Part shown: positions 6,330-55,879 of the stretch, piece by piece
How positions within the stretch are numbered: the first letter of the stretch is position 1
How the letters are laid out: each line of letters starts with the position of its first letter
Source of the DNA: Marsupella aquatica
Taxonomy: Eukaryota > Plantae > Marchantiophyta
DNA length: 64,000 bases
NCBI GenBank assembly: GCA_973895155.1
Contig: OZ316894.1
Coordinates: forward strand, 15,058,699-15,122,698
Reading direction: 5' to 3'
Notes under the pieces: generated by a model
The model's input: the letters and a program-made list of their open reading frames with translations, nothing else
What the model was told of the DNA's origin: nothing
Database searches by the model: none
Position numbers and translations under genes: made by a program

Positions 6330-6460
6330 TGTTATAACCCCTCAGGTTAGGTCTACTCAAAGGTTAGGACTAAGGCGGTTACACAACCAACTACCTTAGC
6401 AACCTACTATGTATATGGATGGAGATGAATAAAGTGTTTACATTATTGTGATGTTGAACA
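6330..6460 (+). repeat. 5' LTR of Bianca-like Copia
   Basis: tgttataaccc...gttgaaca, repeated at 12136-12266. Confidence 0.96.
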
Positions 6461-6474
6461 CGTTATCAACACGA
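6461..6474 (+). other. Primer-binding site (internal/half tRNA-iMet type, Bianca-like)
   Basis: cgttatcaacacga immediately after the 5' LTR. It resembles the Bianca PBS cgttatcagcacga. Confidence 0.75.
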
Positions 6475-6829
6475 AGGTGCTCATCAATTTTTTTTCCTAA
6501 GGGCGACATTGATTCGGGAGAGCTCTGATTTTTGGAAGGGTGTAAGCGGATCAGTGGAGATCTCGGCCAGAGGTCTGTGAACCCCATTACCAACCATAGA
6601 CAGTAATTCTACACCAGATTTTGTCAAGACAAAAGGCGAATTTGGGTATAATCAATCCTCATCAATTCTTGCATCATTCCATTGCTGCAATCCCACATTG
6701 ATCTTTTAAAATCTCCGAGAAAAATTCCCCACATTGATTACAGGCAGTAGAATTGCCAATAGTTAAACATCACCAAACATAACTGAGCGGTGAAGGCCTA
6801 CTCCCCAACATAAACTAAATTCGGGCACA

Positions 6830-11397: not shown

Positions 11398-12135
11398 GGC
11401 GAAACTCCTCCGACTGAGACGAGCGAAAACAAGATTCTGGTTGAACTTCCACAGGTCCCCTGACAAAGACAACAACAAACTCGTCCGGCTTCAAGGGGAG
11501 CACAAACTTATCTGGCAAAGTGACCACAGCTCGAGCAGAAACACTTCGAACAGCCGAACATCAAGCAGGAAGATCCGAACAGGACCACGATATCAAACTG
11601 CCGATCGAAAAGGATGACCTCCCACCAGCACGAATGCAACGACCAAGTCGACAACAAAACACCAATCGAACCTGATCTACTCGACTACAAGAACGAGCAC
11701 TCATCGACATTTCATCACCACCGAAACCTCTTGACCCACCATGACTTCCTTCATCACACGACATTTTCCCACAAACACAGCGGGAAACCTAATCCCTCTT
11801 CACCCCTGCTTTACTTTACCAACTCACCCCTTACATTACCGACCACCTACGACTTGTAACATTAACCCAGACATGATTAACACCCAATTACTCTATGTAA
11901 TATCCACCATACTGATAAACGCTGATTTCAAGACATATAAGGACAGGGTGGTAACACTCTTTTTCCCCCACAAGAAAGGAGGGGGGTTTTAATGAGGTTA
12001 CACCCTAACTTATATCACCCTACTCGACAATCACTTCAACAATCACCAAACATAGGAAACACTTAATTTTCCTATCAACGTTAGACCTTCAATGTCTGCA
12101 TGTTTACCACAACAAACGATGCATCCAAGGGGGAG

Positions 12136-12266
12136 TGTTATAACCCCTTAGGTTAGGTCTACTCAAAGGTTAGGACTAAGGCGGTTACACAACCAGCTAC
12201 CTTAGCAACCTACTATGTATATGGATGGAGATGAATAAAGTGTTTACATTATTGTGATGTTGAACA
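12136..12266 (+). repeat. 3' LTR of Bianca-like Copia
   Basis: Near-identical to 6330-6460 and preceded by the PPT. Confidence 0.96.
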
Positions 12267-15429: not shown

Positions 15430-16221
15430 ATGGCGGGCGCAGCGACACCCGAGTCCAGGGAGGAGAGCGTGTACATGGCGAAGCTTGCAGAGCAAGCTGA
15501 GCGGTACGACGAAATGGTGGAGGCGATGGAGAAGGTCGCCAAGACCGTGGATGTCGAGGAGTTGACGGTCGAGGAACGGAATTTGTTGTCCGTGGCTTAC
15601 AAGAACGTCATCGGGGCACGACGTGCGTCCTGGAGGATCATCTCCTCGATTGAGCAGAAAGAGGAGAGTAAGGGTAATGAGGACCATGTGGCTGCGATCA
15701 AGGACTATAGGGCCAAGGTAGAGTCGGAACTGAGCACTATTTGCGAGAGCATCCTCAATCTCCTTGATACACACCTGATACCCACGTCAACCACTGGGGA
15801 GTCGAAGGTTTTCTATCTGAAGATGAAGGGTGATTACCACCGTTATCTTGCTGAGTTTAAGACCGGCACTGAGCGGAAAGAAGCCGCTGAGAGCACTCTT
15901 CTCGCTTACAAGTCAGCCCAAGATACCGCACTCACGGAGCTCGCTCCTACGCATCCTATCCGATTGGGTTTGGCTTTGAACTTCTCTGTGTTCTACTACG
16001 AAATCTTGAACTCTCCCGACAGGGCGTGTTCTTTGGCAAAGCAGGCCTTCGATGAAGCCATTGCAGAGCTCGACACTCTTGGTGAAGAGTCCTACAAAGA
16101 CAGCACCCTTATCATGCAACTGCTACGAGACAACCTTACTCTCTGGACGTCAGATATGCAAGAAGATGCTGGGGATGACGCCAAGGACGGTGCCAAGCAC
16201 GAGGATGCTGACGACAGTTGA
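15430..16221 (+). CDS. GRF: 14-3-3 protein (plant general regulatory factor, non-epsilon-like), single-exon CDS, 263 aa
   Basis: Canonical motifs [101 protein letters not shown]. Confidence 0.98.
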
Positions 16222-17140: not shown

Positions 17141-18276
17141 AATGAATACATGATATTCATTCTCTATACTAGAGCTATCACATCACATAGTTGACAAACC
17201 CTCTTTTTCCTGTCAATATCTTTCCATCTCCCTTGTTCTATTTTAAGGTGGTGTGAGCTTAGTCTATACTGAGCAATAAGTTGTCTAAGTTGTAGTGAGA
17301 TAGTGCTAGATAAGTATTCTTGTTCTCCATATTTCTTCATGGGGTTCACATCTCTCATGTAGTATACTACATGCCGTGGGCTAGGTTCATGCCAAAGTTT
17401 GTGCAAAGCCTTTTGCTCAAGTTTTGCTCTTAGCTTGGTTGGGTGTGTTGGCTATTCATGTTCAGGAAAATCCCAAGCATGGGCTCACCTGCACACATCT
17501 GCATACCACCCTTTAGCTGAAGATGAGCGCAAGGCATGAAAAGGAAATCTGTTTTCCTCCAACTCTCTTACACGCATGATGTATTTGAGTGTGTGGAAGA
17601 GTGCCTCCACCTCCAAAGGAAACAAGCCTGCCTCTGCAAGTGTAAGTGCATATGGGGTTTGTGACTTGATCCCAAGCTCCATCTCAAGAAATAGCTTTTG
17701 CAGCCCCTCAATCTGTTGCCACCCAGATTTAGACACACCTGCTCCCCAAATTGGTGCTCCATAAAGAATGACTGGTTTCACCAAAGCTCCAAAGAGATGT
17801 TTCCTTAACCTCCAAGTGTGTAAATCAGCTCTTTTGCATTTGTTCATGAATGCATAAAAAGCTCTGTACCCATTAGCAGCCCTAGATTTACACATGAGGC
17901 CCAACTCAAGTTTTGAGAGAACTCCACCCCAAGGTATTTGTAGGTCCTCACAAATTCCACCAGATTCCCTTGGAAGTAGAGCTCTGGATTTTGTCGTGTG
18001 CCAATGCCCAAACACTTGGTCTTCTTGAGGTTGACTACTATCCCTGTTGCTTGACAAAACTCCTCCAAGGCATTGAGATGCCTTTGCAAAGCTTCTTGAG
18101 CATGAGCAAGTAGGACCACATCATCTGCAAATATAAGAAGTTGGAGGACAAACCTACCCAATTGAGTGCCAACTCCACCATGCTCCTCCAAAATGTTGTG
18201 TAGCTGATCAATGAAGATGCCAAAGAGAGTTGGTGAGAGAGGACAACCTTGGATCACCCCAAGAGTGCTCCAGATT
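17141..18276 (-). mobile_element. Internal fragment of LINE ORF2 (RT C-terminal half to Zn finger), inverted near-identical copy of ~42795-43922
   Basis: IQGCPLSPTLFGIFIDQL...LLIFADDVVLL...RLSSHHLKIEQGRW is almost identical to the LINE at 39594-44234, with small indels. Confidence 0.93.
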
Positions 18277-21660: not shown

Positions 21661-22367
21661 CAACACTTGCCAGAACTCCAAAACCGCCGCACAATAGTCG
21701 AGTTCCGTAGAATGGAGCGAAACTCACAGAACGCAACTCAACAGATCTCAATAGACAACCGCCAACCTCAATGAGCCGAGGCTCAAGTCTTAAGTAGCAT
21801 CGGAAACCCAACCATCCAGCCTGAGCCAGCTACCATCTGCAAGGCTCATCCAAACTCCAAGCCTGGTGACTCACCCAAACACCAAACCTGGTGACGATGA
21901 GTCACCCAATCACCAAACCTCAATCCATCCAACCAAGCAGCCCCTCCAAGTTAGCATGCACGCAACCCAACCGGGAGGCCTCGCCCATCATCCCCTATAA
22001 AAGCCATTCCTGAGCCGAAATCTTTCGGCACGACATCCTCCCCCAGTAAACCTGAGCAGCCTTCGATCTGCTCCAATCCATCAGATTTCCTCTAAGTCTG
22101 AGTCCAAACTCAAGCCATGCGCCTGGACCACTTCCTCCTCAAGAAACTCAAACCCAAGGCCTTCAGACTCGGCATTAGGCACTCCACTTTCCAGAAACTC
22201 GAAGTCCAACTCATCCGAATCAGAACCAGTCAAGCCACTTTCGAAACTCAAGTCCAACGGATGTGCCTGGACCAGTGCCTCATCTTCAAATTCACTCAAG
22301 TTGGAACTTGAGTCCATTCCCTTCTTGGTCCTCTTGAAGATCTTCACCCTTTTCCCTGCGTAAGGTA

Positions 22368-22530
22368 CACTAGTAGAAACCGGGGCAATTTAGACCATAC
22401 CTTATAGGACTATGCCCACTAAGTCCTTTTTCCATACTTAAAACAACTCGCACCCATTGCACCGGTTTTGTTGAAGACTAGAAAAGACTATGAGAGTTTT
22501 ATGGTTCACTAAAAGACTATGAGAAGTAAC
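22368..22530 (+). repeat. CACTA left TIR and subterminal repeats
   Basis: cactagtagaaaccgggg followed by ggactatg / aaaagactatgaga repeats. Confidence 0.88.
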
Positions 22531-25500
22531 CTTGCTACTTTGTGAAGGGTGAATAGTCTAGCACATCATGGGTAATGTTCACTCTATGTTGAGGAGGGGT
22601 AATTCTCCTTCATCTTTGAGCCGAAAGCACCGACGTCTATCGAGTGCCAAAGAACTGCTGGAGATCGAGCGAATTCACACTCTCAGATGTGGGTCGTGTC
22701 AAATTGTTTCCTCCATTGATGGCAGCCTTCTGTGAGATTGATTTATACTGTGTGGCTATCTGGGAGTTTTGTCGACTCATTTGACACCGATACTCCCGTG
22801 ATTTCCTCATACATAGTGCCACTGCCCCCCCGCATTGTGTTCAATCCCTATAGCTTATAGCTGCACCACTCTTGGTGGCCCTTGCTCATGCCTTGGTTTT
22901 TTTTCTTTTTCCCATTACAGTATACACCCCCTTCTTACTAATCAGGTGGATTAATTTAGTACTAGACAATGCTTTGACACTTTACACTTACACTATGCTG
23001 ACCTACTGCGCCTTCTAGTGCTTATTCCCTAGTTGTTACTTGTTGCATGGACCACTAGAAGAACGGCTTCGCAATCTTTGCCTGATCTGATGACCCTGGT
23101 TGAGTAACTCTTTGTTATTGCCTCCTTTGGGTGTTGAGGTTTTATGATGCCATTTGGCCTACTGGTTCCCCCATCCGTGGGGTTCACGCGGAATAAATGT
23201 AAAATTTCAAACAAAAAAATAAATCTATAAAGAGGGTGATAGCAAGGGGCATAACTCATTAAATGTCCTTATTTGTGACCAAAAAGGTTTTGGGTTAATG
23301 AAGTGGGGTTCATGGAGGTTGGACCATGGAGGGATGGTCAAGATATTCTTGGCCATTACTAAATCCATCTATAAAAGGTCAAGATGCACAAAGGTAGATT
23401 TGTACCGGTCCTTTTTCATACATTAGAGCTAGGTCACATTCTTGCACCGGGAATATTGCATTTTAGGACCGGATATAATGTTGGGCAACCTTAATCCTGA
23501 TTACGGCGTGCAATAAAATGTCACTACCGACCATGTATGTGCAAATATGACCATTCATTGCCTAAGTTGGCCATGCAGTAACACTTTGTAGCTTTGTCCC
23601 ACTTTGGGTGACACTCAACGGCTCACTCAAACGGTAAGGCTGAGTGGCTTCCCCTAATTCGGTTTCAGGCACTAAACTTCACTTTGGGAGTCTCTTTGGA
23701 GTTTTCGCCATTGTCATTGAACTTAGAACGTGAGGGGTGGAGTGTTCGGGGTTTTACGTAGGGTTTTCCTTTCAGTGTTGCCCACTTTTTGCGACCATTG
23801 CGGAGTGAACTTCCCGCGCGTTATGTGCTTGTTTATGCTCTCGAGGAGCAGTGTTCAGGCAGTTGCAGTGATCTAACCTTGCGCTTGCAGTCTACTCATA
23901 GACCTGCATTCCTGCTCGATCTCCTTTAGGGACATTTAGTTTTTGGCTGGTAGGGCGAAGAAGGTTGTGGCTGCTGCAACGTTCGTGAGGAGCTTGTCGG
24001 AGTTTGAGGAGTCGGAGGTTGGGGTTTCTTCAAGGTTTTGGGTGACAATCTCGGTCACAGTTGTGGTATAGACCCTTTTGCTGCACCCATAACGAGCATC
24101 GGGAGGCCGTGAGGCTCATTGGGAGGTCCTTCAGTTGTCAAGCTGCCGTTGAGCTGGTGAAGTTGCATGCGGGTTGCATCTGTTCTGCGGACACAGTCAA
24201 TGTGGGAATCCATATTTTCATAGTGCTTGTTCTTGCAAACTGGGAGCCGAGAGTTTGGAGTCGGGAGCTAAGAAGGGTATTGTTAGGCTTCAATTACTCT
24301 GTGGTTTTCTCCAGCTCCATGGTACAGTTTCAATGTTAATGCTTTGTCCTTGTGCTGGTCTAGGTAGCGCGAGCTTCTACCTATTGCGCCCTCTTGCTGT
24401 AAGCGTATTGAGCTGCCAACTGAGTGATTCATACCTGTAGCTGCTTACGCGTGATCAAGAGATTGAACAAATGCCTAGTGCTGTCCAGCAGGAGAAAACT
24501 CTTTTTGGTCACGATCGGGCGTTGGAATATAACTAAGTGCGGCAGAGCAACACGGGGAGCTGTAGAGTTGCAGACAAGACGCAACTATAGAGGAGGCATT
24601 GGGAAGGACACAACGGTGCGGTGAAGGTACAAGGACCGTGGACCCTAACTTGTTTGCTGCCTTGGGAGGATCCGGAGAGCCCGAGGCGACATGCTTCATT
24701 GAGCCTGAGCTAGCTGAATCCAATCCAGGAGTTGTTGCGCTAAGGTGAGACTTTGAGTTTAGGGTTGCTTCAGTGTCCGAGTAGGTTTTCTCTTTGCGTC
24801 GGCAGCTAGAAGGTAAGCTCGGGGGCTTTACAAAGGGTTAGTGTTGTGGACTTTCCCTCCTGGACGTTGTGTGTCTTCATTTGCAACTTGTTTGTGGACC
24901 TGTGATCCTGAGACTGTCAAAATTGTTGTGGCCGCACTGACAACTTGATGACGCGTTTTGTGGATGCACCGTTAGTAATCGCGAGTACAGCTCTCCAACA
25001 ATTGCACTTACCATTTTTGACCACCTTGCATGATGTCCATCCGTGGGCTGGACCCCAAGAAGTAGATTTCGGTAGATTTCGGTAGATTTTGTCTTTGCCC
25101 CCGGTCCTCATTTTGTGCAATGTCCGCCTGGCACTTGGTTCTTGATCCCTACATTATCGTCTGCCGCTCGGCTGCTTGCAGAAGGGATCAAACAGATTGG
25201 AGGTGCTTGGTCTTTTCATTTTGAGTGTCAGAGTTTAGGAGGACAGCTTGCACCATCGCCGACAAGAATGACCTGCTTGCAGAACAAGAGGGACGAGCGT
25301 GAGCTGCTTGCAGAATAGGAGATTGACCGCGAGCACGAGCTGCTTGAAAAATAGGAGACTGAGGGCAACCTGCTTCTTTGTTGCTACTCTGGTTGCGCTG
25401 CTACATTGGTTGTTGATCTTCACCCACCCACTTGCCTACTCAATTGACAGAGTACAGCTTTGTCTCTGCGTCTGTTATTGCTGTCTTTGTCCCTCCCCTT

Positions 25501-26760
25501 GAAATTGTGGGCCTTAAAAGGTCAGTAAGTTGGCTTATGTAGTTTTTATGTCCCTCCGCTATGTCAATGCGTGTTTCATTGCATCAGGGCATCAGTCGCT
25601 GTTTGCCTATAACCGGACTGTTCATTCTCTGTCCACTCATTTGATGTAATTCTTCCCATTGCCGCCCAATGCTATGGCGCCCATGCTACAATTTGTGGTT
25701 TTTGTCTAAGCACAAATCCTCTCTGTGCCTGGTCTCTGTGTCCCGTCATTGGGATTGATTGTGTAGACGTTTCCTCTTCTCCCAGTCCTTGTCATCCACC
25801 AGCCAAAGCACATTGGATTGTTTTCAAAGGAGGGCTGTGTAGTTTGGAGGGTTTGATCTATGCAGCGGATTTGAGCAGATTGGCGGTTGTTAGTTTCTTC
25901 TTGTAAAACCTGTCTGTCTTTTCTGCTTTTGGCCATGCTCCTTCACTTCTTGCTGCAAGCTCAATGTGCTTCAGCTATGGCAATATTCACTTACCCTATC
26001 CCAACGGCACTACCGTGAGCTGTAGGACAGCCAACAGAAGCAGATTGTATCGATTGCATGTAAGTCAGGGTATTTTATGTATTGCGGAACAACTGTCCAA
26101 GTTTGCTGCAATGGCCGGTCTTGCGCAGCTGAATGAGCCAATTTCATTTTCCCTGTGCACTTCTATTTCTCAAAGAATTCCCTGGTCATGCTCATTTCCC
26201 CCAGAGTTAGAAAACAAAGAAGAAGAGCTGACTAATTGTAATTCCAATCCATATCCTGATCGGTCAAGGATTGTTCACTACATTGGCCTTGTCATTGGCC
26301 GAGGTCACCAAATTTTGCTTGGTTTCATTCCTGTGGAGCACTGCTGTGATGGATTTGTCGTAGCATTCTGCAAACTCTCACGGTTTGCTTATGGCCATTA
26401 TTTGCAATTTGCTGCTACTAATATGTCTTCTTCTGAGCAGCATACACCATAAGTAAGCAATAGTGGAGGTTTAACTGCACATCAACACATCTAGTGAACT
26501 ACCTCTCTGCTGCTCACTGGAGGGTGAGACTTTCACTCTTTCTGGATATTGTAGTTTGTAAGCAAGTTGATTAGGAGTGTTTCATGCTATGTTTACACTG
26601 TGACCCCTAGCTGGAACCAATGGAATGACACAGTGAGTGGGAACTGATAATTTAAGGTTGGTTGCTGTTGGTGAGGCAAGTACAGCTCCTGCTCACCTTG
26701 CTGATCGAAGGTGCTTATCAGAGGACGTGAACACACGACATCTCCACAAAAGCAACACTT

Positions 26761-27210
26761 ATGGTGAGGACCCGCAACGCTGAACATGTGCGGCTTGCAC
26801 GCAAGGCAGAGATGTTGCGCCTTGAGTATGTCAGACTTGGGATCCTTCCAGCCCAGTCTGCATGGTACTTTGAGTACCCAGTTGTTGCCAGGAACAACTA
26901 CAGCCGGCCTGTACCTGCTTCTCCACCCTTCCCAACATCCTTGGTATTTCTGTCTCTCATACATGACCCGCCACAAATTAGGGCCCAAGGGTGTGTGCAC
27001 AGTTGCCAATATGATTGTCCTGCCTGTAGGGCTTCTGGCCTAGAGTTGGATGACCGTTCTCTTGGATGTCGGTTTTTTCATAGAGCACAATGTATCATCT
27101 GGAACCACTCGCCATCCTGCAGTGTGCCTGGCGATGTCACTTGTCCTGCCCTCCCAGACCCCACCACCGGTCACTTTGGTGTCTACACATGTTTGGATCA
27201 CACGCTCTAG
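26761..27210 (+). CDS. Small Cys/His-rich ORF of unknown function inside the CACTA, 149 aa
   Basis: ATG-started ORF co-oriented with the other cargo, containing CVHSCQYDCPAC...CRFFHRAQC...C...C...CLDH. No family recognised. Confidence 0.4.
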   Translation: MVRTRNAEHVRLARKAEMLRLEYVRLGILPAQSAWYFEYPVVARNNYSRPVPASPPFPTSLVFLSLIHDPPQIRAQGCVHSCQYDCPACRASGLELDDRSLGCRFFHRAQCIIWNHSPSCSVPGDVTCPALPDPTTGHFGVYTCLDHTL

Positions 27211-27879
27211 AGGACCACTTGTCACACCGCATGCACAAACCAGAGACCATTGACCTATAACTTAACACTTTGACTTGAACAGAGAGGATATTTACTTAAG
27301 ATTTTGAATTATGACCAATTTTGGGTCCAGGGTTTAGGGTCAACAGTACATAACTTATCCTATTATGGCTACACTAAGTACAATATCCTAATTTAAGAGG
27401 CTAGCAAGCTCACTTAAAAGTCTCCTTTCAAAGACTGGAATTAATGGGCCATGTGATAACCTGGAAAAAGTGATTTCTGCCTAACTTATTTGTCTCATTC
27501 ACTATCATAGCCTATTTAGGATGTATAAATTACAACCCTGATCACAGTGCTTGATACCAATCCTGTTCAAAAAATGCCTGTTTTACATGTCACGACTGTT
27601 ATATGTGATTCAAATGCATTAAATCTTGTTGCAGATCTCCTTTGGTGAATCATAGCCACAAAATTGAGGTGTAGGTGGAGCTATTGTACGAGGGGATCAG
27701 TTTTTAGTGTGGGCTCAACAAACCAAAAAGTATGTCTACTCTGCACATGTGTGTGAACATTTCATTGCAGTAGCAATTGCCACTCTAGTCTATATGCTAC
27801 ACTGTACTTTTTGTACACTGCACTAAATTGTATTGTCCGTGCACTCTGCTAAATTGTACTATCTGTCTCATGCGTAGGC

Positions 27880-28548
27880 ATGGCACGCCCTAAAATCCGA
27901 GCCAAGAAGCGGGGGACAGAGGTGAGCAACACAGGTGTAGTTGGGCCAGATGGTAGTAACTTCTCCGCAAGTCAGATTTTCCAGAAGGCAGCTCATTGTT
28001 GTGCCATTTGTGACGATGGTGGTGGCTTAGCCATATGTGAGGGCCCTTGCATGAGGCATTTCCACCTCAACCCGGAGTCTGACCTTGCTGCAGAAAACAA
28101 CTGTCCAGGGGTGGGCCTCCCGTCAGCACACCAGGGAGGCTGGATGTGCACTGATTGTTTGGAGAAGCAGGCTAAGTGTGCACAGTGTGGGAAGTTGGGG
28201 TCTTATGAGGGCTCTGTTGATGCTCCACCACTTGTTAGGAAATGCCCTGACAGATATTGTGTGAGGTTCTTTTGTTTTTCATGTTTGCCCGATCTTGCCA
28301 CAGCTTGCCCACTTCATAAGTGCAAGGCATGTGGTCAGCACGATGAAGATTTCTGGGTGGACATAGTCCACTGTGTTAGGTGTCCCTTTCATTGTTTGAA
28401 GGAGCGTCAAGCAGAAGGCTATGCTTGTGACAGACACATCTATGATCACTCTGCACATGGTGTTGATCGATGGATCTTCTATTGTCATCGCCATGCCATA
28501 GATCCTACTTTGCACACTCCCATGAGAGATCACATTTCTTGGCTTTGA
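27880..28548 (+). CDS. Stand-alone EDM2-like composite PHD-finger protein with N-terminal NLS-like segment, 222 aa (CACTA cargo)
   Basis: CAICDDGGGLAICEGPCMRHFH...CTDC...CAQCGKLGS...CPLHKCKAC...CVRCP...IFYCHRHAIDPTLHTPMRDHISW parallels the Arabidopsis EDM2 PHD region as recalled (CAICDNGG..CCEG.CLRSFH...CPLHKC..C...CRRCP...IYC..HEID..L.TP.RDH). N-terminus is RPKIRAKKR. Confidence 0.85.
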   Translation: MARPKIRAKKRGTEVSNTGVVGPDGSNFSASQIFQKAAHCCAICDDGGGLAICEGPCMRHFHLNPESDLAAENNCPGVGLPSAHQGGWMCTDCLEKQAKCAQCGKLGSYEGSVDAPPLVRKCPDRYCVRFFCFSCLPDLATACPLHKCKACGQHDEDFWVDIVHCVRCPFHCLKERQAEGYACDRHIYDHSAHGVDRWIFYCHRHAIDPTLHTPMRDHISWL

Positions 28549-29146
28549 ACCTGAATAATATACATGCATAGTGCACCTGATGTGGATACCTTGGAGATTG
28601 TAGACATTCCAATTTTGAGAAGAAGGACCTCTGTAGGAGAGGATGCTTAGGCAACAAGTACCCTAAGTTCATTACTTGTTCCTGGGTACATGCCTTCAAA
28701 AACTGCCCTTAAGCCTTCTAGGAACTTTTTTAACTCTGCAATCATTTTGATCACGACTTACATGACACTGCTTAAATTAAATCAGGACTTCTCATTATGA
28801 GCATATAAGTTACAAGGCTATTTAATTTGCGAGAATTCCCTTAAAGTGTACCAACATTTTGTATTCTCATTGAATGTCTGCCCATTTACAACATCTGTAT
28901 GTGGCATCACAAAACAATTGCACTTGTCACCTTCAATATTGTGAAGGCACATATTCAAACTATGAGGTGCATGCTTGCAGGTGTCTAGTATGTTTGTCCC
29001 AATATTTCTCCCGTTTGGAATCGGAGCAGAGACTCACCAAACGACTGGACTGGACCAAGTTATAAACGCAGCATTTTAAGGGCCCTCTGATTATCAGGTG
29101 AACGCATTATCTTCCGGTCTGCAGTGATTAGGTGGCCCGTGTGTAC

Positions 29147-29995
29147 ATGGCCTCTAGAAAACGTACAAAGGTTGACCACCCGCCTCTGTTGGCTGGAATC
29201 AAAGCCATTTTGATTCCTGGCCACTATGGGTTCACCCAAGTGAGTTGGCCAATCGTACAAAAACGATTCTCAGAGTTCCATGGGACTGAAGTCAAGGACA
29301 TCACTCCACAGACTACACATGTTGTTGCGGGGACATGGCTGGATGTGATGAACAAGTGGTCATGGTCCTTCATTGATTCTGCCATTACCAACCAAGGTCT
29401 AAAAGTAGTTGAAGTCTCTTGGCTGACCGATTCTGTTAAACATAGGTGTGTACAGAGTACTGAGCAATATGAGTTGTGGGAGAGTGAGGAGGCCACTGCA
29501 GAGGCTTTGGCTGAAAAGGAAGCCTATGAAGCAGCGGCAGAGAAACCCAACTTTGCTTCTGTCCAATATGGACCTGTTGTCAACATAGGACACCATCCTA
29601 TGCGTGCAGATGCTATATTGAATGAGCATGGCAAGGAGAGAAATACCATTATGAAGGGGTTCAATGTGGTATTTGCAGAAGAAGGAATTGGGGAGACTAA
29701 GTGCAGACTGTACAAGTCTATAGTTGTTGAGCTAGGTGGGACAGTGGAGGAGAGTCTAACAGAAACCTCCACTCATGTTGTAGGTCTGTCATACATAAAA
29801 ATATGCAGAAAATTCTTTAAGACAACAGTGCGTGATTTTGTCATGAACAACAATCTTTGGGTGCTTTCCCCTGATTGGCTTCTGGAATTAGCAGCTAGAG
29901 GGAAGCGACAGAATGCTTGGGACTTTGATATTTTTGAGGCCTGGCCCTCCAAGATTCAGCGAAGATGTATGCTTAGCAAAGGTGGGAGAGAGTGA
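29147..29995 (+). CDS. Tandem BRCT-domain protein (CACTA cargo)
   Basis: Two BRCT units: LLAGIKAILI...FHGTEVKDITPQTTHVVA...VVEVSWLTDSV...YEL and IMKGFNVVFA...ELGGTVEESLTETSTHVVG...VLSPDWLLE. N-terminal RKRTK. Confidence 0.82.
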   Translation: MASRKRTKVDHPPLLAGIKAILIPGHYGFTQVSWPIVQKRFSEFHGTEVKDITPQTTHVVAGTWLDVMNKWSWSFIDSAITNQGLKVVEVSWLTDSVKHRCVQSTEQYELWESEEATAEALAEKEAYEAAAEKPNFASVQYGPVVNIGHHPMRADAILNEHGKERNTIMKGFNVVFAEEGIGETKCRLYKSIVVELGGTVEESLTETSTHVVGLSYIKICRKFFKTTVRDFVMNNNLWVLSPDWLLELAARGKRQNAWDFDIFEAWPSKIQRRCMLSKGGRE

Positions 29996-30171
29996 GGAGT
30001 AGGAGTCCCTCATATTTTTGTATAAAACACAATTTTGTAATAAATGTGATCCTTGAACTAACTCATCTTGTCATGGTTGGTCGCAGTTGAAGTGATTGTT
30101 GTTTCCTGCTGCGTGGGGTGTGACTGTGAATCTACTTGCTGGGCTCTGTTTGGCTGAAGACTTTGGTGGGT

Positions 30172-30705
30172 ATGCTGCCTCTTCCAGACCGTCAGGCCCT
30201 ATGTAGGGTCCTCCTACGGGTTGCATCGTGCATGGCTACTGCTTGGGCTTACTTGTGTGGATTGGTAACCAGACAGAGTGTAGCTCCATCCGAGATAATG
30301 CCTGCAGACCTTGGATGTGTTGTGAATGCTGTGGTGAATGAGGATGCACAGTCGGAAGAGGACATTTACTTTTCAGCAGATGAGTTAGACAAGCACGATG
30401 CTGTAGGTGGTTCCTTGTTGCCTGATTTGGCAGATGATATAGTTCTTACACATGTCTGGCCGAGGGTTCTTGTGGTGTCTGGCGCACAAGATATCTGCAA
30501 ATATAGACTAATTAGTACCCAGTGGAGGGACTTGGTAGCAACATGTGCACCATGGAGGGCACTGCTGCCATTGCTTGTAGGCACGGATCGAAGACCACCA
30601 TGGCATGAGCAGGGTTTAGACCTTGATGACTTAATGTACATGCCTGAGTACCTCAGGGCTGAGTGGCATCGACAACAGGATTGGTATCCGTATTTGATGT
30701 GGTAG
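30172..30705 (+). CDS. F-box-like small protein lacking an obvious substrate-binding domain (CACTA cargo)
   Basis: SLLPDLADDIVLTHVWPRV...CKYRLISTQWRDLV matches the F-box pattern LPxLPDDIxxxIxxRL...RxVSxxWRxLV. Confidence 0.62.
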   Translation: MLPLPDRQALCRVLLRVASCMATAWAYLCGLVTRQSVAPSEIMPADLGCVVNAVVNEDAQSEEDIYFSADELDKHDAVGGSLLPDLADDIVLTHVWPRVLVVSGAQDICKYRLISTQWRDLVATCAPWRALLPLLVGTDRRPPWHEQGLDLDDLMYMPEYLRAEWHRQQDWYPYLMW

Positions 30706-31031
30706 TAAGATGAGGACATCTCACACCGGTCTCGCACCTGGCACCTGTGTCTATGACTATACATGATTGGACTCTGATATGGTCATGGATGTACGTGCAG
30801 AGGCAGTACATGTGAGGACAGCGGAGGAGTTGACACCCTCAAACATTTAGGAATTTTGTCTCATTCACTTGAGAATAGGTACATGACTCAGGCACCTATA
30901 TTTTTTGTTTTTTTGTTTTTTTGGAACGTTACGTATTTTGGCAAGTACAGTCGGGGGTGAAATCCTTAACAGGAAGTGTATTTTTCACTTGCATAATAAA
31001 ATGACAGGGTGCTGAGTGCGTGTGTATAGTG

Positions 31032-34000
31032 ATGGCTCCAAGGTTGCCTCTTCACAACCCATTTAGGATTAGGCATCATGATTCTAAATTGTGGATGCGT
31101 GAACAAGCCCGGGCCGCCCAAGGTAGGAGTAGGAGGATGAGATGCCCATGCACACAGTGCCAAGGATTCAAGTCGTTGAGTTTGAACACTGTGCACCTTC
31201 ACCTGCTGCGGCATGAAAGGCACCCTCGGTGGAGGGTTTGGAATGTACCAGCAGAAGAAGACTCCTCTGATGAAGAGTGGAGAGCTGACTTTGTGGATTC
31301 TAATACAGCTAGGCGTAGAGACTACGTAGAGCAGGACATAGACTGTGCAGAGGATGGTCCTGGGGTCCAACATGAGAACGTGGATGACCAAGATGGAGAT
31401 GCAGAGGCAATCACTGAGGACGGTGGGATGGATGTCCCAAGAATGGTTCAAGAGATTTTTGAAGACCTTGATGCTTTTTACGACACAGTGGAATCAGAAG
31501 AGGACAATGAACCGCAGCCACACATTGGCGACGGCCAAGCTCAACCTGACTTTGACATTGGGGAAGGTGCAGCAGAGAGGGAGTGGGTGTTTGGGGGCCC
31601 AAAACACATCAAAGAAGCTTGCATTCCTATCTACGAGGGGTCGAACTACTCCAAGCTGGGTTTTGTCGTGTTGTTGTTGAACATCTGTGGCAATCACAAT
31701 GTTCCCAATATATTTGTGACAGAGTTGTTGACCTTCCTGCGCCGAAATGTGTTACCAGATGGTAATTCAATTCCAAAAAATATGTACGAGGCTAGGAAAT
31801 TGATGTCTAACCTTGGGCTGAACTATGTGTCTATTGACGCATGCCCTGATGGGTGTGTTCTCTTTCGCAAAGAGCATGCAGATAAATTGACATGCCCTCA
31901 TTGTGGTAAGCACAGGTACAAGAATGTAGGGAAATGTACACACCCTGCCAAGGTTCTTCGTCATTTTCCTCTCATTCCTAGACTACAACGTCTGTTTAGA
32001 TGCCCTGCCATTTCCAAGCTGATGACATGGACTCCTGATAACAAGAGCAGTGATGGCCTGCAGCGTCACATTGGAGATTCCAACCATTGGAAATTTGTTG
32101 ATGAGAGGTGGCCACAGTTTGCTGCAGAGAAGCGGAACTTTCGATTTGGTCTATCACTGGATGGAGTAAACCCATTTGGAGACAAAAACAACCGTTATTC
32201 ATGTTGGCCGGTTACGCTGCTAAATTACAACCTTCCCCCATGGATGACTACAAAGAGGTTTTTTGTCATGATGGTGCTGTTAATCCCTGGACCAGCTTCT
32301 GTGACCGAGCAATTCATAGATATCATGTTGGCTCCAGCAGTGGAAGAGTGGAAGACTTTGTGGATAGAAGGGGTGTTAACCCATGATGTTCTGAAGGGGC
32401 TTCTTCGACCTAGCCCCTTTAGACTGCATGCAATTTGTTTGCTGGATATAGCAGATTACCCAGGCCATGGCATCATATCTGGACGAGTGACAAAGGGCTA
32501 TGTGGGGTGCACACCATGTGGGAAAAATGTGACAAGTGAGTGGTCGCATGCCCTGCACAGTATGAAATTTCAGGGGCATAGAAGGTATCTGCCTGTTGAT
32601 CATCCTTACAGGCACACACGGTCTCAAATTGCACACTTCAACAACAAAACAGAGCTTCGTGGCCCACCACAGAGGGTCACCAGAGAGCAAGTCCTGAGGT
32701 GGGCAGCCAGGAAGGCTGATTGGGACAAGAGAAGTGCCACTGATCGAGAACCTGAGGATCCAGTGGTGAAACACGGTGTGAAAAGACAGACCTTGATGGA
32801 CTTGGAGTTGGAGTACTGGAGGGTAATGTACTTAGCCTCCAGCCCCTGTATGATTGCAATTTTAGATTGGAGCAATGGTGGATTGATGTTGGTTACAATC
32901 CTCCTATGTGGTTAATTAGTGTTTCTGTTGTTGAATTCTTTGCTTTGTGGAGTGCAGGAATTCGAGCCCAGCAAACACAATGTGGACGTCATGCACATTG
33001 AGAAAAATATTTGTGAGAGCTTGCTGAAGTTCTTGTCGGGTGAGAAAGATACAGGAGCAGTTCGAGCTGATATGCAACACAAGGGGATTCGCCCTCACCT
33101 TTGGTTGAAGCCCCATGCAAGCAATCCCAATGTACTTCTCAAGTTCCAAGCTCCCTATGTGTGCACACAGGATGAATGGAAGACATTCTTGTATAGATTG
33201 AGCTGTCTGAAAGTGCCCTCTGGCTATGTTGGTGCCTTCAAGAAGCATATTACAAAGAATAAACTTGGCAGTATGAAAACACATGACTACCATGTGTTGA
33301 TGCAACACATTCTGCCCCTATGCCTCAGAGGTCTCATGCAGAAACCAGTCCGTAATGTCATTCTTCGACTGTGCAATGTATTTTGCCGTATATGTGTGAA
33401 AGTGTGGGATCCCCAAGGATTGGAGCAGTTGAAGCAGGATGCTGCTTATGTCCTCTGTGACTTGGAGATATACTTCCCCCCTGCTTTCTTTGATGTTATG
33501 ACTCATCTCCTAATCCATGTGGTAGAAGAGCTAGGGCAGTATGGGCCAGTCAGTACCAGATGGATGTACCCTATGGAGCGATACATGAAGTTGTTGAAAG
33601 GTCATGTGAGAACATACTACAGGCCAGAGGCTTCCATGGCATTGGGGTACATTACGGATGAGACGTTGGGATTCCTAACAGAGTACATGGCTGGGTCTGG
33701 TGAAGCTATGACAAGAGTTTGGAAATCTGGTGAAGATGATGGAGTGAGTGGCGAGGTTGTTGAAGGTGTGGGACGTGCTGTTCAACTGCCTGTTGCGATT
33801 CGAGACAAGGCTCATTCATATGTGCTGGCAAACACAGAGCCTATGCAACCATGGTGGAGGTGAGTGATTGAATTGACTTGCCTTTGTTGTGATGCTTCTT
33901 GTCTGTTCCAAGGGTGATCTTAGGTTGTCATGTGTTGTTTAGACCTAACTATGCCTGTACCTCATAATGCAGGGAATATGATATGCAAAAAGCTGCACAC

Positions 34001-34732
34001 TCTGGGCAGCAGGATCCCTTCCCACAGTTCGAGCAGTGGATTCGGGTGACAATTCGAGAGCATAGTAGACATCACCCAGATATGGAGAATGATTTGTATC
34101 TTCTATCTGTGCCACCACGATTGTCTATTCTGACCTACAAACGGATGAGAGCTTATGGAAATCATTATCGAGTGAGGGATGAGCAGGGTGACCATTGTGT
34201 ATCATATGATTGTGGTTTGATTTCTGTGTTTGAGCAGAGAACCTCTGAAGAACAGAGGGGGTGGATGAAGATGGGTTACGTGGGGGAGTTGACCGACATT
34301 TGGGTGTTGAATTATGGTAACACAAGTGTCCCAGTGATATTGATGAAGGGATCATGGGTGAAATCAGAGTGGCAGAGACCAAGGGCCACCATGAAGCGTG
34401 ATCATGATGGGTTCTTGTTGGCCAATTTTAGGTCCAGAGTACCAGAATGGTCTGAGCCTTTTGTTTTCCCTAGCCAAGTTGAACAGGCTTTCTTTGCAGA
34501 TGTGGAGGAGTCACATGACTGGAGGGTGGTATGCCATAGCCAAGCACGGAACAGGCGGATGGATGGAAGTAAAGTAGAGTTCAGTTTGGATGACCATGCT
34601 GCATTCGAGCATCCTAGTCATGAGACTGTACTTCCAACTCGGGCAGGGACTGACTACATCCCCTTAACATTGAGAGAGACATATGATGAACCTGGGCAAA
34701 TGGAATATGATGAGGTTGATGATTTGCAATAG
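31032..34732 (+). CDS. CACTA transposase TnpD (transposase-associated, Transposase_21, DUF4218, DUF4216); exons 31032-32822, 32958-33859, 33973-34732
   Basis: Motifs RCPCTQC, IDACPDGCVLF...CPHCGKHRY, GLSLDGVNPF...YSCWPV..LNYNLPPW, DVMHIEKN, MKTHDYH, WMYPMERYM, EPFVFPSQVEQAFF. GT-AG introns at 32823-32957 and 33860-33972 join the three ORFs in frame. Confidence 0.93.
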
Positions 34733-34909
34733 GCAACAGCTGGCGATTGGCAAGTATGAGGTTGAGGATGACTACCTGCACAGAGTCACATAACGGGAAT
34801 TGCTGCCTGGAATGATGTTTAGGATAGTTGGATATGCATGAAATTGATTGATACTTTGAATTTAGTGTGCTGATTCTCCCTGTTTGGTTGTGGGTGTTGT
34901 GCAGAAGCT

Positions 34910-37900
34910 ATGGGGGAAGAGGGTGATGACATGGAGACAGACATGGGGCTTGGAGAGTGGGGTGAAGAGGAAAGATTGGATATGGATGGAGACCCAGATG
35001 CAGGGGGCTCACAGAAAAATGCACCTGTGCAAGATGCACAGGGCCCTCATCAAGTCCCAGGTAGGTGGGCAGCTAGAGAGAAATCACATAATCCATACCC
35101 TAGAAGGAGCCAGAGTTATTGGCAAGGGACGCCTGATAATTATGATGATGACTATGATGGAGCAGAAGATGGATGGGATGAATATGAACACCCAGAGCGT
35201 GGTAGAGACGGGTACAGAGGGCAATGGAAAGGTGAGGAGGATGATTGGACAAGTAAGTGCCTTGTGCTAGTGATTTTGTGATGATAGTAGAGATTTAGCT
35301 CAATATGCACTTATCTGATGTGTAGCTAGGGCAAAGAGTTTATCTTACAGGTCCATGAGTGTGGCATGTACCTGTTGGTATGCAGACTCTGATTGGGACA
35401 ATCACGAAAACAACAAAGGCCATCCACGTTCAGATAGGAGGCAATCATTCACAGGCGGGAGAAACGCCCCTAATTCATCAAGACAAAGCAATAGGACAGG
35501 TGGTCCAGAACCATCTATGCGCCAAGGGAGAGGTAACTTGGTCATTGCAGAATTGCTCTGAAGTCCACTGTATATTTGGCAGCGGGATTTATGATTCATA
35601 CTTACCTAATGTAAGTGACTGTAAATGGATCCTGTAAATGTGCAGGGACTCCAGGGAGGTTTGGACAATGCAATCCAGGCCGTGGGGGGAGATCAGGCCG
35701 TGGAGGGACCCCAGGCCGTGGGGGGACACCAGGCCGTGGAGGGACACCTAGTAGCGCTTCAGGGAGTACCAAGGCAGGAGACAGTAACAAATTTGGTAAA
35801 GTAGAAGTGAATTCCGAAGGTTGGATAACTCCCACATGTGATGGTAAGAACCGTTGGCATTCTGACCTAAGAGGAGAAGTATTGCGTTGGTTAGATTTGA
35901 GCATTACAGAGTTTAGGAGTCAGAACAAAGCTGATTGGGCTGCTATCTGCAAGGACATTCTTGAATGGTGGGAGTATGTTGGTAATGATGGTAAGGGCCC
36001 AGTTGAAGATTGCATATCAGATTATGCAATGAGGATTTTGAAACAAGAGAGGCATAGGTTGAAAAGGATGTGGATAGACAATGGTTCTAACAGGAGAATG
36101 CCACCACCCCCATCATTGGAACTGGATCAATGGACACGGTTAATCAAAGGGTTCATGTCGGAGGCTGGACAGAGCAAGAGTGAACTGATGTCAAATGCTC
36201 GAGGCAAAGTGAAACACCTTTCACAGGCTGGGAGAGGAAGTTATGCTCCAGTGAAAGAACAATTGGTAAGGCAGTGACATGCCTGATAGTAAGCCTCAAA
36301 CTTATCATCTTGCTACCATTATTACATTTTCATTGACAATCAACACTTGGTTTCATTCATATGTATGTTGATGTGGACTGCAGAAGAAATTGACAGGTGA
36401 AGAACCATCAGCACAAGAAGTGAGAGAGGAGTTCATGAAACAAAGGAGTGAGGTGACAAGTGTAACTTCCAAACAGGTGATTATGTTGTAATTCTGTATG
36501 TTCTGTGACTATTTGGCCTTGAGCATCAGAAAGAAATGTAGTAGGAAGTAAGCAACCAGTTCTTGGGGACAGTTATCTGAGATATGTAAGCTATGTTATG
36601 ACAGGGAACTGTTACAACTCTCACAAAGATGTGTGAACGGTTGAAGTCATTAGAGTGTGGACTCCCTCGAGTGGAAAGTAAATTGGCTGATCGTTTGGAT
36701 ATTGTGGAGGCATATGTAGCGAACCTTCTTGCATCAGTGGAATCTAATTTCAAGCTTGTGATTGAAAAATTGGGTGGTTCCCAACCAAACAATGAGGGCA
36801 ACATTGTACAAAGTGTGCCCTTGTTAACAAAAAAGGGAATTGGCAAATCTAACACAGGTATGGAAATGACACCGGCCCATTGTTCATTGTGTCCTATGTT
36901 CAAATGTTAGAAGTAAGTTTTCATGAATTGAGTGAATGGTTTGAATGCAGGAAGAGTGGAGGCAGAGAAGGACCCTGTAATCAGTAAGCAGAAGGGCAAG
37001 AAGGTTGCTGAGACAGGTAACCTGCTATGATCCAATACATTACATTTGAAAAGTGCATGGAGTTTTGTGAAGCTTAAGCCGGTTGGAGGTAATCTTTTCT
37101 GTAAGAACTGGTTGGATGAACTGGGATCTGAAGTGACATCATGATTGATGTATCAGGTGATTCAAAGAGCAATAATGAAGAAGATGTGCCCAGTGCCTCA
37201 GTGACCATAGCCAAGGAGGTATCAGGTAAGCTGATGCTTTAAATTCCTCTATATGAATGTTGAGCAACAATTCAGTGGTTAATAGATTCAACCTGAATAT
37301 TGTGGTGTGTTTATTGATCAACAGAAGCAGACATGGAGCATATGGCAATGGCAAAGAAGGGGAAGAAGGCTGTTCATAATGGTAAGGAGATAGTGACAAC
37401 TTTGTGGTTGGTGACATGTACATTTAGCACATGTGATGAGTGATTGACTTATGTTGGACATGACACTGAATTGTAGTTGATGCAGAGTTGACAGACTCTC
37501 AACCAAGTGGGAGTAGGGTGAAGCGACGTCGAAACTTGGGAGCAACATTGGATGCAAGTAAGATTGTAGATGCTTCAATTGAAGCAAGTACAATGTTGGC
37601 AGATACTGAGATGATGTCGCAGGGAAATCCTGCTACACAATCAGAAGTGTCAAATATGGATGCAGATTCTTTGAAGAAGAGTGTAGCCAATTCTCGATCA
37701 CCAGCACAAAACACTCGTGCCAAAGTCATGACTCGCAACCAAGGTATGAATAATGTCATGTATAAGCCACCCAGGAAAGCCAAGAAAAACAGCCAGGGTA
37801 AGGTGGAGGTGATAGCCACAGCAGAGCCAGTCCATAATCTTCTATCATGGGAGGATGACTCGCAGGTATGTGTGGGTACAGGCATTTTGCGACCGGATCA

Positions 37901-38081
37901 TGCAAAATTCCATGGCAAAGTGGTCCCGGATGACCATGTAGTAGTGTTGTTGACTACAGTGATTGTATCTGATTATAATTTGCCATTTCCGAATAGAGAC
38001 GATGATCCACCTCAGGAAATAATTGCAGATGCAGTAGGATCTCTTGTGCTCTGGCCATCAGAGTGTGTTAGTCTGCAGTGA
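34910..38081 (+). CDS. CACTA TnpA-like DNA-binding protein, multi-exon (exon boundaries approximate)
   Basis: PPSLELDQWTRLIKGFMSEAGQSKSELMSNARGKVKHLSQAGRGSY (Transposase_24-like). Last exon FHGKVVPDDHVVVLL...LPFP...IADAVGSLVLWP (Tnp1/En-Spm C-terminal-like). Several GT-AG introns. Confidence 0.8.
35675..35750 (+). repeat. 18-bp coding tandem repeat (PGRGGT)
   Basis: ccaggccgtgg(g/a)gggac, about 4 copies. Confidence 0.8.
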
Positions 38082-38574
38082 CTGAATGCAAGTGTAGATA
38101 GCATCATGTGAATTGTGTCACATTTTGACATTGCCTTGGAAAGATCCAAGAAATATCTGTACCAATTTTTCCATTTGGTAAAGAGGATGAAGGAGACGTT
38201 GTGTGTGACATTGATATTTCTGAATTCTGTATGTATGAAACAAGTGATTGATGTCAAACTATGGCTCTATGGTGATTGTCTATGATACTTGAATCTATTT
38301 TATCATTTCAGTATTAGTGTGTATGGTATAGAGGAATACTTTGTGACCTTCTTTGTAGTCTATGAAGTTTGAATCTGTGAATTCATATTAGTGTACATGG
38401 TATAGAAGATGGCTTTCTGAAACTATGTATTCTAATGTTAACATGATGAATGGTGAACTTATAGAGTGAGTTCATTCCAAGTACACAATAAAACATGAAT
38501 GCAATATGTTATTTGTGCACAAGAGTGGGTTCATTCCAAGTAGTATAGTGGGGTCTTCATCACTCATATCCAGT

Positions 38575-38907
38575 TGACATAAAAGACTTATACATACCCC
38601 ACAAAGTATATTTAAAGACTACCCTCCATAACCTTTTTAGTCGTTCCCAACGACTCATCATCGCAGCCCATAAAAGACTAAAAACGACTCACCAAAGCTA
38701 CCCACACAAAGACTAAAATAGACTGAAAATCCAGTCTATTAAACGACTTATAAACCAGTTCTATAAAGGACTCAGTTGATTATAGTAACAAAACATACGA
38801 CTCGCAGTCCTATAAAGGACTAGAGTCCTTCCCAGTCGTTTCCAAGTCCTATACGGTACTGAATAGTCGTTTAATGGGGTCTAAATACCCCCCGGTTTCT
38901 ACTAGTG
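38575..38907 (-). repeat. CACTA right subterminal repeats and TIR
   Basis: Many aaagact/aaaggact/acgact motifs in both orientations, ending in ccccggtttctactagtg. Confidence 0.88.
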
Positions 38908-39608
38908 TCAAGACGCCGGTACAAAGGCAAGCATTGTAATTCGAGGAAGTGAGTCTCCACAACTGAATATGAAGTTGTGTGGTATGGTTTTTGTTCTCAT
39001 GATGAAATTTGAATGTCTTGGGTGTGTAGCTTCATTTTGTTATTTGGGTTAGTGGTTCATAGTCTAGTCTTTAGAATGTTAGGGAATAAAAAGCTATGTT
39101 GTGGGTGGTCGGTGACCATATCTCTTTCAATATGTCACCAAATCTGGATCTGTAAAGAGCATTGGAAAGATCTGGTCACGTCGAGTAAAATCAATATAAA
39201 ACTCTATGAAAACAAAGGTGATTAAGAAAGATTCAACCTGATTAGTGTGATGGGTTAACTTGTGGCCAAAATTAACGGGTTCTGCTACGGTTTTGGGTTA
39301 ACTTAAGCTTGGCCACGGCTTAGTTTTGGGCCACGACTTAGTTTGGGCCACGACTTAGTTTTGGGCCATGGCTTAGCTTAGGTGAGCTTGGCCATGGCTT
39401 AGCTTAGGTCAGGACTACTTTAGTTTAGGCTTAACCCAAGTTTGGGTTAGACTGAACTCGGGTTAGCCTAAAATGGGGCCGGGGTTAGCATAGGTCATCT
39501 CGGGTTTGGGCTTAGCTTAGCCTAGGTTAGCGGGTAGCGGATTAGCGGGTAGCGGTTTAACCCAAGGCCATGGGTTAGCTCTACTCAGGTTAGCTATGTA
39601 ACTGCAAC

Positions 39609-43800: not shown

Positions 43801-44105
43801 ATAGACTAAGCTCACACCACCTTGAAGTAGAACAAGGGAGATGGAAGGATATTGACAGGAAAAAGAGGGTTTGTCAACTATGTGATAGCTCTAGTATAGA
43901 GAATGAATATCATGTATTCATTGCTTGCAAGTTTTATGAGGGGGTTAGGATGGCATCTCAAATCTTGGTGAAAGATTTGTATGCATTGTTTGGTCTGCCC
44001 CCTCATCAACTTGGAAGATATATCTTTGCGGTGGATAGGGAAAGGAGAATAGGTTTGGAAAATCTTTCAGGGCTCTCTAGGTCCATAGTTTCTTTGAGGA
44101 CATAG
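40893..44105 (+). pseudogene. LINE ORF2 (APE endonuclease, RT, C-terminal CCHC) with two frameshifts
   Basis: LRVMAWNVSGL, FTETW, IVGDFNAR, STIDYLL, QAGFRR, FVDFSKAFDKV, QGCPLSP, LIFADD, YKYLGV, CQLC...ENEYHVFIAC. Frameshifts at ~42270 and ~43260. Confidence 0.93.
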
Positions 44106-50994: not shown

Positions 50995-51215
50995 TCTCAG
51001 AGAAAAGACCAAAAGTGAACTTTGGATTAGGATTGTGTCAGTCCAAAAATACAAGACAATGGCTAACAAAAAAGAAAATTAACCTATACCGTTTTTAGAA
51101 GCCTCACAATGTGTAGACGGATATGGAGACTTTAATTGGTGAGTGCATTCTGTGAGACCGAGAAGTATTTTAGATTGGTATGAATAAATAGAAAGTCAAA
51201 AGCTGAATTTCATTC

Positions 51216-55723: not shown

Positions 55724-55879
55724 GCAGTCGGTCGGTGCAATCGTGGTTTTGAAACCAACAAGATCGAGCCTGCATCATAAACATCATCCATGTTAGACTT
55801 AAAACTTGTTGGATTAGGATGGTCCTAGTCCAACTTGAGATGGTTTTAGACTTGCTCCTACAATCGGGATTCAATCTCC

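Follow-up and report, generated by a model that had tools for sequence, protein, structure and literature searches.

A stand-alone EDM2-type PHD gene within a CACTA transposon of the liverwort Marsupella aquatica

A 64,000-nt stretch of contig OZ316894.1 from the liverwort Marsupella aquatica (the window; positions 15,058,699 to 15,122,698 of assembly GCA_973895155.1) contains a short open reading frame (ORF) with three PHD fingers. Does this ORF belong to the host or to a mobile element, where did its fingers come from, and what could a reader module do on its own? According to the original prediction, it is an EDM2-type PHD module inside a transposon. The transposon was confirmed by CACTA termini, subterminal repeats and a TnpD gene: the PHD ORF sits within a 16.5-kb CACTA element (22368-38907), ahead of TnpD. 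The element has the following features.

22368..22396, + strand: left terminal inverted repeat, starting with CACTA; 18 bp perfect, about 30 bp imperfect
22474..22518, no strand: left subterminal repeats, motif A[AC]GACT, 3 copies
26761..27210, + strand: Cys/His-rich ORF, 149 aa, without a Pfam family; probably another accessory gene or exon
27880..28548, + strand: stand-alone EDM2-type three-finger PHD ORF, 222 aa, ATG to TGA
28385..28386, + strand: site of an in-frame 12-nt loss, by which 4 residues including a finger-3 His ligand are removed
29147..29995, + strand: twin-BRCT ORF, 282 aa, PF00533 in 2 stretches (E 2e-13)
30172..30705, + strand: ORF of 177 aa with a weak F-box-like stretch, PF00646 below cutoff (E 0.1); a lead only
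31032..34732, + strand: TnpD transposase, predicted exons 31032-32822, 32958-33859 and 33973-34732
34910..38081, + strand: candidate multi-exon TnpA-like gene, PF03004 (Transposase_24) below cutoff (E 0.014), exon borders set by eye
38583..38870, no strand: right subterminal repeats, A[AC]GACT, 8 direct and 3 inverted copies
38878..38907, - strand: right terminal inverted repeat, 18 bp perfect with the left end

The pair of termini at 22368 and 38907 was the only CACTA-type pair in the window. The subterminal motif had 52 matches across the 64 kb, 11 of which lay within the 290 bp at the right end. TnpD had the Transposase_21, DUF4218 and DUF4216 domains typical of the superfamily, with matches to PF02992 (E 1e-59), PF13963, PF13960 and PF13952, and it stayed open over 1150 codons once two predicted GT-AG introns were removed. 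A 3-bp target-site duplication is a feature of the CACTA superfamily. No clean duplication was found at the ends of this element, where the 3-mers were GTA (22365-22367) and TCA (38908-38910). A Gypsy-like remnant borders the element on the left and does not visibly resume on the right. Because the 3-mers differ and the flanks do not visibly join, a deletion or rearrangement beside the insertion is suggested. Despite the missing duplication, the element belongs to the CACTA superfamily by its termini, subterminal repeats and transposase. Its CHG observed/expected ratio (1.09, versus 0.63-1.03 in other repeats) was not distinctive. A 1.1-kb part of a LINE flanks the element as two inverted, 98% identical copies (17141-18276 and 42795-43922), 24.5 kb apart.

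The PHD ORF is a single open frame and, as originally noted, needs no intron over its 222 codons. It has a basic leader (aa 1-30, beginning MARPKIRAKKR), an N-terminal family motif (F-S-x7-Q-K-A-A-H), fingers at about aa 41-93, 100-146 and 148-205, and a terminal motif, TPxRDHISWL. The C-terminus reads IFYCHRHAIDPTLHTPMRDHISWL. The leader had been described as NLS-like, and its basic composition stood; nuclear import would be the presumed consequence. An acceptor-like TAG lies 2 nt upstream of the ATG, where eight aligned relatives likewise start with M[AT]R. Given the acceptor-like AG at this distance, an additional N-terminal coding exon is possible. When the 8.7-kb 5' region was shuffled 200 times, an ORF of this length appeared once, and a chance ORF was rejected as an explanation.

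A profile built from the window ORF and four relatives of the same size matched 11 longer proteins among 2470 candidates (E 2e-23 to 2e-14, query coverage 80-85%, 72-101 bits), four of them named ENHANCED DOWNY MILDEW 2 or -like. The alignment began at the first Cys and extended through the TPxRDH motif. A single-sequence search among longer proteins gave no significant match for 428 candidates, whereas the profile search did find matches. In the reverse direction, a profile made from the 11 long proteins only scored the window PHD protein at 70.8 bits, versus at most 3.6 for shuffles (n = 200, 197 reported). An Atlas search was concordant. The Cys/His spacing and terminal motif were thus rightly called EDM2-type, as revealed by forward and reverse profiles. 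The window copy occupies 23 of the 24 predicted zinc-ligand positions, and the four same-size relatives (P0001-P0004) occupy all 24. One His ligand of EDM2 finger 2 is replaced by Cys in the transposon family. The sole Pfam match of the window copy was PHD-1st_NSD, below cutoff; the intact relative P0001 matched PHD-1st_NSD, PHD_NSD and PHDvar_NSD, all below cutoff and in the order of NSD and EDM2 proteins.

Arabidopsis EDM2 and EDM2-like proteins (EDM2 acts in the AAE complex with ASI1/IBM2 and AIPP1/EDM3) share the entire PHD cassette through TPxRDH, at 28-35% identity. The differences are large: EDM2 has about 1250 aa and the transposon protein 222, without the RFD, acidic, methyltransferase-like and proline-rich parts; its leader is basic instead of acidic, the helix insert of finger 2 is missing, and it is encoded by a transposon. 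The methyltransferase-like ELP domain has been described as a feature of EDM2 (PMC7529245). In all six frames of the 64-kb window, the RFD domain had no match at E<=1 and the methyltransferase-like domain was not found. With five full-length proteins as tblastn queries against the window, the PHD ORF was the only significant match. The claim that the rest of EDM2 is absent therefore held. Judged from its sequence, the ORF carries the reader cassette of EDM2 and yet is not an EDM2, three defining parts being absent on testing. An exon of a host EDM2 gene was rejected, since no other EDM2 domain occurs in the window, relatives keep the start and stop, and the ORF lies inside the terminal inverted repeats. 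The tandem PHD of NSD1/2/3 (PHD5-C5HCH) gave the best profile match to a solved structure (NSD2, E 5e-9) and resembles the P0001 model. However, NSD2 scored 39 bits, versus 98-143 bits for EDM2-like proteins, and the N-terminal acidic hallmark of NSD proteins is absent in the family. An NSD-derived module was rejected, as NSD scores were much lower.

Is the copy in the window intact? Zinc ligands had been suspected to be deleted near CVRCPFHC, and this was correct: the in-frame loss took a His, the predicted fifth ligand of finger 3. The missing 12 nt were retained in P0001-P0004 and in contigs or loose ends of six of the eight read sets (X1, X2, X3, X4, X5 and X10), with X7 and X8 lacking coverage of the site. 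One X4 contig equalled the window over 214 nt and diverged exactly at the 12-nt site. Since relatives and other read sets keep the 12 nt, the loss either arose recently in this copy alone or reflects an assembly error. Finger 3 of the window copy would have lost part or all of its function. Its AlphaFold model had a pLDDT below 50 over most of residues 155-222, and finger 3 of the P0001 model reached 70-89; the two models used different alignments, so that this comparison is a hint only. Mean pLDDT was 52-53 for both, a low overall confidence. A fold search with the window-copy model gave no match at E<=0.001. The P0001 model resembled the NSD PHD5-C5HCH tandems 2naa, 9gbf and 4gng (E 7e-4, probability 0.99). 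Also among its fold matches, as a weak match from a low-confidence model, was PHF7-UBE2D2 (E 8e-3).

The PHD ORF is one of a family. P0001-P0004 (217-245 aa, from Logan) share 39-82% identity and keep the start and stop regions. Searching 1.84 billion representatives with the profile gave 441 matches at E<=0.001. Short relatives, picked by eye on length and sequence, made up 15 of the best 150 of these 441, including seven of the top eight; with two cluster members added, 20 relatives were examined in all. Stand-alone relatives therefore number at least 20, the most distant at about 40% identity. As judged by eye, roughly half of the short relatives were truncated or ran into unrelated sequence, and some of these may be contig ends; this pattern suggests decayed transposon copies. 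Trees took in those members that were long enough, using only rows that covered the cassette. All nine placed family members formed one clade in a 40-row tree (support 100/98), and 11 family rows clustered in a fast tree of 147 rows (support 94). Two metagenome scans gave no CACTA linkage for the distant relatives, which are proteins without genomic context: the family locus occurred in 0 of 475 stretches in one scan, and 1 of 48 in the other was a 19-residue match in a marine contig, treated as chance.

The family is also multi-copy in reads. Between 46 and 75% of the words of the 27400-30800 stretch occurred in public runs of three organism codes (5 of 13 runs listed), and runs X1-X5 had hundreds to thousands of overlapping variant contigs over the PHD region. 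Contig depth in X1 was alike (1700-2000) from the PHD ORF via the BRCT ORF to the start of TnpD; this depth is not a copy number, and no single contig spans the PHD ORF and TnpD. Among the 39 read variants listed for the PHD ORF, 18 were synonymous and 21 non-synonymous (dN/dS 0.29, p 4e-4), and one diverged contig alone gave 0.31 (p 0.01; 26 of its 29 differences). Both figures are rough and rest on the variants listed (40 of 67 rows). No variant among those listed changed a ligand Cys or His. By these estimates, the PHD ORF is under purifying selection across a multi-copy family. Its conservation and this selection make a function for the element likely, and we consider it highly probable that the element carries the ORF as cargo with some function.

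The opposite case, a functionless Pack-type fragment that was captured and amplified with the element as a neutral passenger, seems improbable. The zinc ligand lost in the window copy and the many broken relatives fit such a fragment. However, ligands, start and stop are kept among members only 39-43% identical, the listed variants have a synonymous excess, and family-specific changes are conserved. Moreover, the family is about 33% identical to its nearest known host protein, which argues for a long life outside the host gene. The window element shares CACTA termini, subterminal repeats, TnpD and captured host sequence, and perhaps a TnpA-like gene, with CACTA (En/Spm) and Pack-CACTA elements. 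Pack-CACTAs are non-autonomous and carry recent, near-identical host fragments, whereas this element looks autonomous and its accessory ORFs are old, selected and intronless. With TnpD open and identity to the nearest known host protein this low, the element does not fit Pack-CACTA transduplication.

Which host gene was the donor? The best host matches were liverwort proteins: P0023 of Calypogeia fissa (143 bits), the Marchantia EDM2 P0024 (124 bits) and P0025 of Riccia (123 bits). Five proteins (P0023, P0025, P0028, P0042 and P0060) have an RFD-like region, lack the methyltransferase-like domain and formed their own clade in the tree. Among the 145 proteins examined, an [FW][STW] motif placed 13 residues ahead of the first Cys was present in all 17 family members scored, versus 1 of 127 other proteins scored. 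The sole exception was P0023, which has the RFD-like region, no methyltransferase-like domain, and an end 6 residues past the RDH motif. Since P0023 alone shares the motif and ends near RDH, capture of the 3' end of such a paralogue is indicated. The likely donor is thus a liverwort EDM2 paralogue without the methyltransferase-like domain, and not EDM2 proper. Trees neither showed nor rejected this placement. The original prediction had called for a phylogeny against host EDM2, which established a monophyletic family and left the donor without a position: the free tree put the family, on its long branch, outside the clade of streptophyte EDM2 proteins, and by AU tests both its union with the liverwort paralogues (p 0.49) and that with liverwort EDM2 proper (p 0.43) stayed acceptable.

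Liverwort RFD+PHD paralogues include Calypogeia fissa CAM6087769.1, Marchantia MARPO_0005s0286 and Riccia KAL3685775.1, with a short form, MARPO_0172s0021. Like the transposon protein, for which they are the top host match, they carry the cassette at or near the C-terminus; the N-terminal motif is shared by Calypogeia only. They differ by the RFD-like region (the short form excepted) and by acids before finger 1, and they are about 32-35% identical to the transposon family. The paralogue clade as a whole (P0023, P0025, P0028, P0042, P0060 and P0063) combines RFD and PHD cassette without a methyltransferase-like domain, with P0063 having the cassette only. The latter, a Marchantia host protein of 280 aa, means that the stand-alone form is not transposon-specific. 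In the accessible parts of the literature, no report was found on the function of the liverwort RFD+PHD paralogue.

What the fingers would bind was approached by motif comparison. In the PHD5-C5HCH tandem of NSD2, H3K4, H3R8 and H3R2 are reported to be bound by D1240, D1247 and D1255, respectively, and H3A1 by a PxGxW pocket (PMC11724302). Finger 1 of the transposon protein keeps the R8 and R2 acids (D46, E54) and G86-x-W88, as mapped by eye to the NSD2 numbering, and has His at the K4-anchoring position. An acid (D/E) at -2/-3 of the first Cys was found in none of the 18 family members scored, versus 92 of the 109 other proteins scored (145 examined). Instead, 16 of the 18 have His at -2. The liverwort host proteins have acids at -4/-5, where the family has mostly Lys, Ala or Ser, so that the charge before finger 1 is reversed family-wide (K..H versus acids in hosts). 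The 20 residues before the first Cys contain 1 acid in the window PHD protein, versus 10-13 in nine Solanaceae-type EDM2s and 4-5 in two others. Because the change is conserved across the family, the altered H3K4 pocket has probably been under selection.

EDM2 has been reported to bind H3K9me2 (PMC7472560, PMC7529245). The earlier reading that this recognition carries over was not upheld, as all 18 family members scored lack the K4-anchoring acid, and the specificity of EDM2 is therefore not transferable. Within the same fold, NSD3 is reported to prefer H3K9me3 and NSD2 H3K27me3, and the NSD1 tandem to bind H3 weakly and the partner Nizp1 instead (PMC11724302). Histone binding by the family protein is uncertain on this comparison.

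The PHD ORF has company. Together with the BRCT and F-box-like ORFs it appears, by sequence, to form a cassette of host-like accessory genes in the CACTA element. The Atlas neighbours of the twin-BRCT ORF were BRCT clusters; 3 of its 10 listed variants were synonymous, without a clear synonymous excess. The Cys-rich ORF had high read depth, five of its eight codons with listed read variants were synonymous, and the listed indels began directly past its stop. Between the left end and the start of TnpD lie 8.7 kb with three or four ORFs. Acceptor-like YAG trinucleotides, a common sequence, lie 2, 15-22, 2 and 5 nt before the start codons of PHD, BRCT, TnpD and TnpA, respectively. Since such sites precede four start codons, expression through one 5' leader spliced to several ORFs is suggested. 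Poly(A)-like hexamers were present 3' of the PHD, BRCT and F-box-like ORFs.

We tentatively prefer a reading in which a multi-copy CACTA family conserves the PHD ORF as an accessory gene that was likely captured from a liverwort EDM2 paralogue and likely encodes a nuclear counter-silencing decoy or adaptor. The C-terminal cassette of an RFD+PHD paralogue would have been captured into the element; the direction would be from host to element because the host form retains the ancestral RFD. The ORF would be expressed from the spliced 5' leader, and its product would enter the nucleus by means of the basic leader and fold, depending on zinc, into NSD-like tandem fingers. Without any effector domain, the protein could then occupy chromatin, or the partner surfaces of host EDM2-like factors, and the occupation of EDM2-like sites might loosen repression of the element. 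The changed H3K4 pocket suggests that it would read another mark than EDM2. Intact copies would supply the protein in trans to a damaged copy such as that of the window. Arabidopsis edm2 mutants are reported to release Mu1, a DNA transposon, from repression and to repress COPIA4 more strongly (PMC3632883). Because loss of EDM2 acts oppositely on these two, a decoy need not help the element.

To our knowledge, few plant transposon-encoded counter-silencing proteins have been described, and VANC of the VANDAL Mutator-like elements is the model case. It resembles our preferred decoy or adaptor as an accessory protein proposed to counter silencing in trans, a comparison of how the two would work and of nothing else. 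VANC comes from another superfamily and its effect is experimental, whereas the role of the CACTA PHD protein is proposed from sequence. Silencing suppressors such as VANC21 have been reported from plant transposons (PMC8616336). Accessory ORFs and anti-silencing factors are described for Mutator-like elements, and a PHD finger for the Rehavkus transposase (PMC8616336, PMC6446971). In the accessible parts of the literature searched, no account was found of EDM2-type PHD or BRCT accessory genes in CACTA elements.

Other functions are compatible with part of the evidence. Instead of acting as a decoy, the PHD protein might tether the TnpA/TnpD transpososome to a chosen chromatin state, steering insertion or aiding excision and repair, with the twin-BRCT protein as a partner that reads phosphorylated marks at break sites. 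The reader-type PHD and BRCT ORFs adjoin each other ahead of TnpD, the window copy is inserted amid retroelement remains, a PHD finger occurs within the Rehavkus transposase (PMC6446971), and finger 1 retains, as judged by eye, the GxW pocket and two of the three acids through which NSD2 PHD5 contacts H3. However, the PHD protein is a separate ORF with a conserved stop, unfused to the transposase, and one insertion site is uninformative about preference. We consider targeting unlikely. Quite unlikely, in our view, is that the fingers serve as a non-histone scaffold, binding a host protein or DNA, or that they act with the F-box-like ORF in the ubiquitin pathway to remove a host silencing factor. 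Such roles would fit the family-wide charge reversal before finger 1 with His at -2 in 16 of 18 members, the nearby F-box-like ORF, the PHF7-UBE2D2 fold match (E 8e-3) and the reported binding of Nizp1 by the NSD1 tandem (PMC11724302), but the F-box match is below cutoff and the fold match is weak and comes from a low-confidence model.

Beside the decoy, the original prediction had offered a recruiter function: the PHD protein, bound to heterochromatin, would bring in AIPP1/ASI1 orthologues, which would suppress proximal polyadenylation and permit read-through to TnpD and TnpA. The layout of the element is suitable, with TnpD lying 8.7 kb in behind three or four ORFs, acceptor-like sites at the starts, and poly(A)-like hexamers following three of the ORFs (PHD, BRCT and F-box-like), and the AAE complex is reported to promote distal polyadenylation across heterochromatin (PMC7529245, PMC7472560). 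Yet the protein has no RFD, acidic, methyltransferase-like or RNA-binding domain, its H3K4 pocket is changed, and its likely donor is other than EDM2 proper. Internal promoters would make read-through needless, and H3K27me3 also marks transposons in bryophytes, as reported in PMC11982613. The recruiter is hence a weaker rival than the decoy, and a very unlikely one.

The preferred decoy or adaptor can be extended to the whole cassette. A CACTA lineage of liverworts may carry a chromatin toolkit of its own, consisting of a re-tuned PHD protein, derived from the machinery with which the host processes heterochromatin, with the twin-BRCT, F-box-like and Cys-rich proteins, expressed from one spliced leader and jointly disarming or redirecting host silencing. 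We regard this extension as doubtful; if true, it would be the first plant-transposon anti-silencing system to be made out of a host protein that reads silenced chromatin. Apart from it, the family offers a host-derived EDM2-type reader kept under selection to about 40% identity with its H3K4 pocket changed, and so a cloneable probe of how transposons use chromatin readers. It also points to an unstudied liverwort EDM2 paralogue, and Marchantia is a tractable test host.

The window holds further features outside the CACTA element. A plant 14-3-3 gene (15430-16221) is intronless and intact, with undepleted CpG (0.88), and is surrounded by transposons. This gene marks the host as a land plant, and the nearest named homologues in the analysis pointed to a liverwort. 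A degenerate Copia element (6330-12266) has a 131-bp repeat pair at its ends, 98% identical. A second probable mobile unit, with ORFs on the - strand, occupies 49969-58800. It contains a NIF/HAD-type phosphatase ORF (49969-51078, - strand; PF03031, E 5e-14), together with 79-bp repeats (53615-53993) and two tandem arrays of a partly palindromic 27-bp unit (about 55750-56430 and 57720-58700). Another of its ORFs (52185-53306, - strand) ends in a stretch resembling N6/N4 DNA methyltransferases (PF01555, E 1e-4, below cutoff); N4-methyltransferases have been reported in liverworts.
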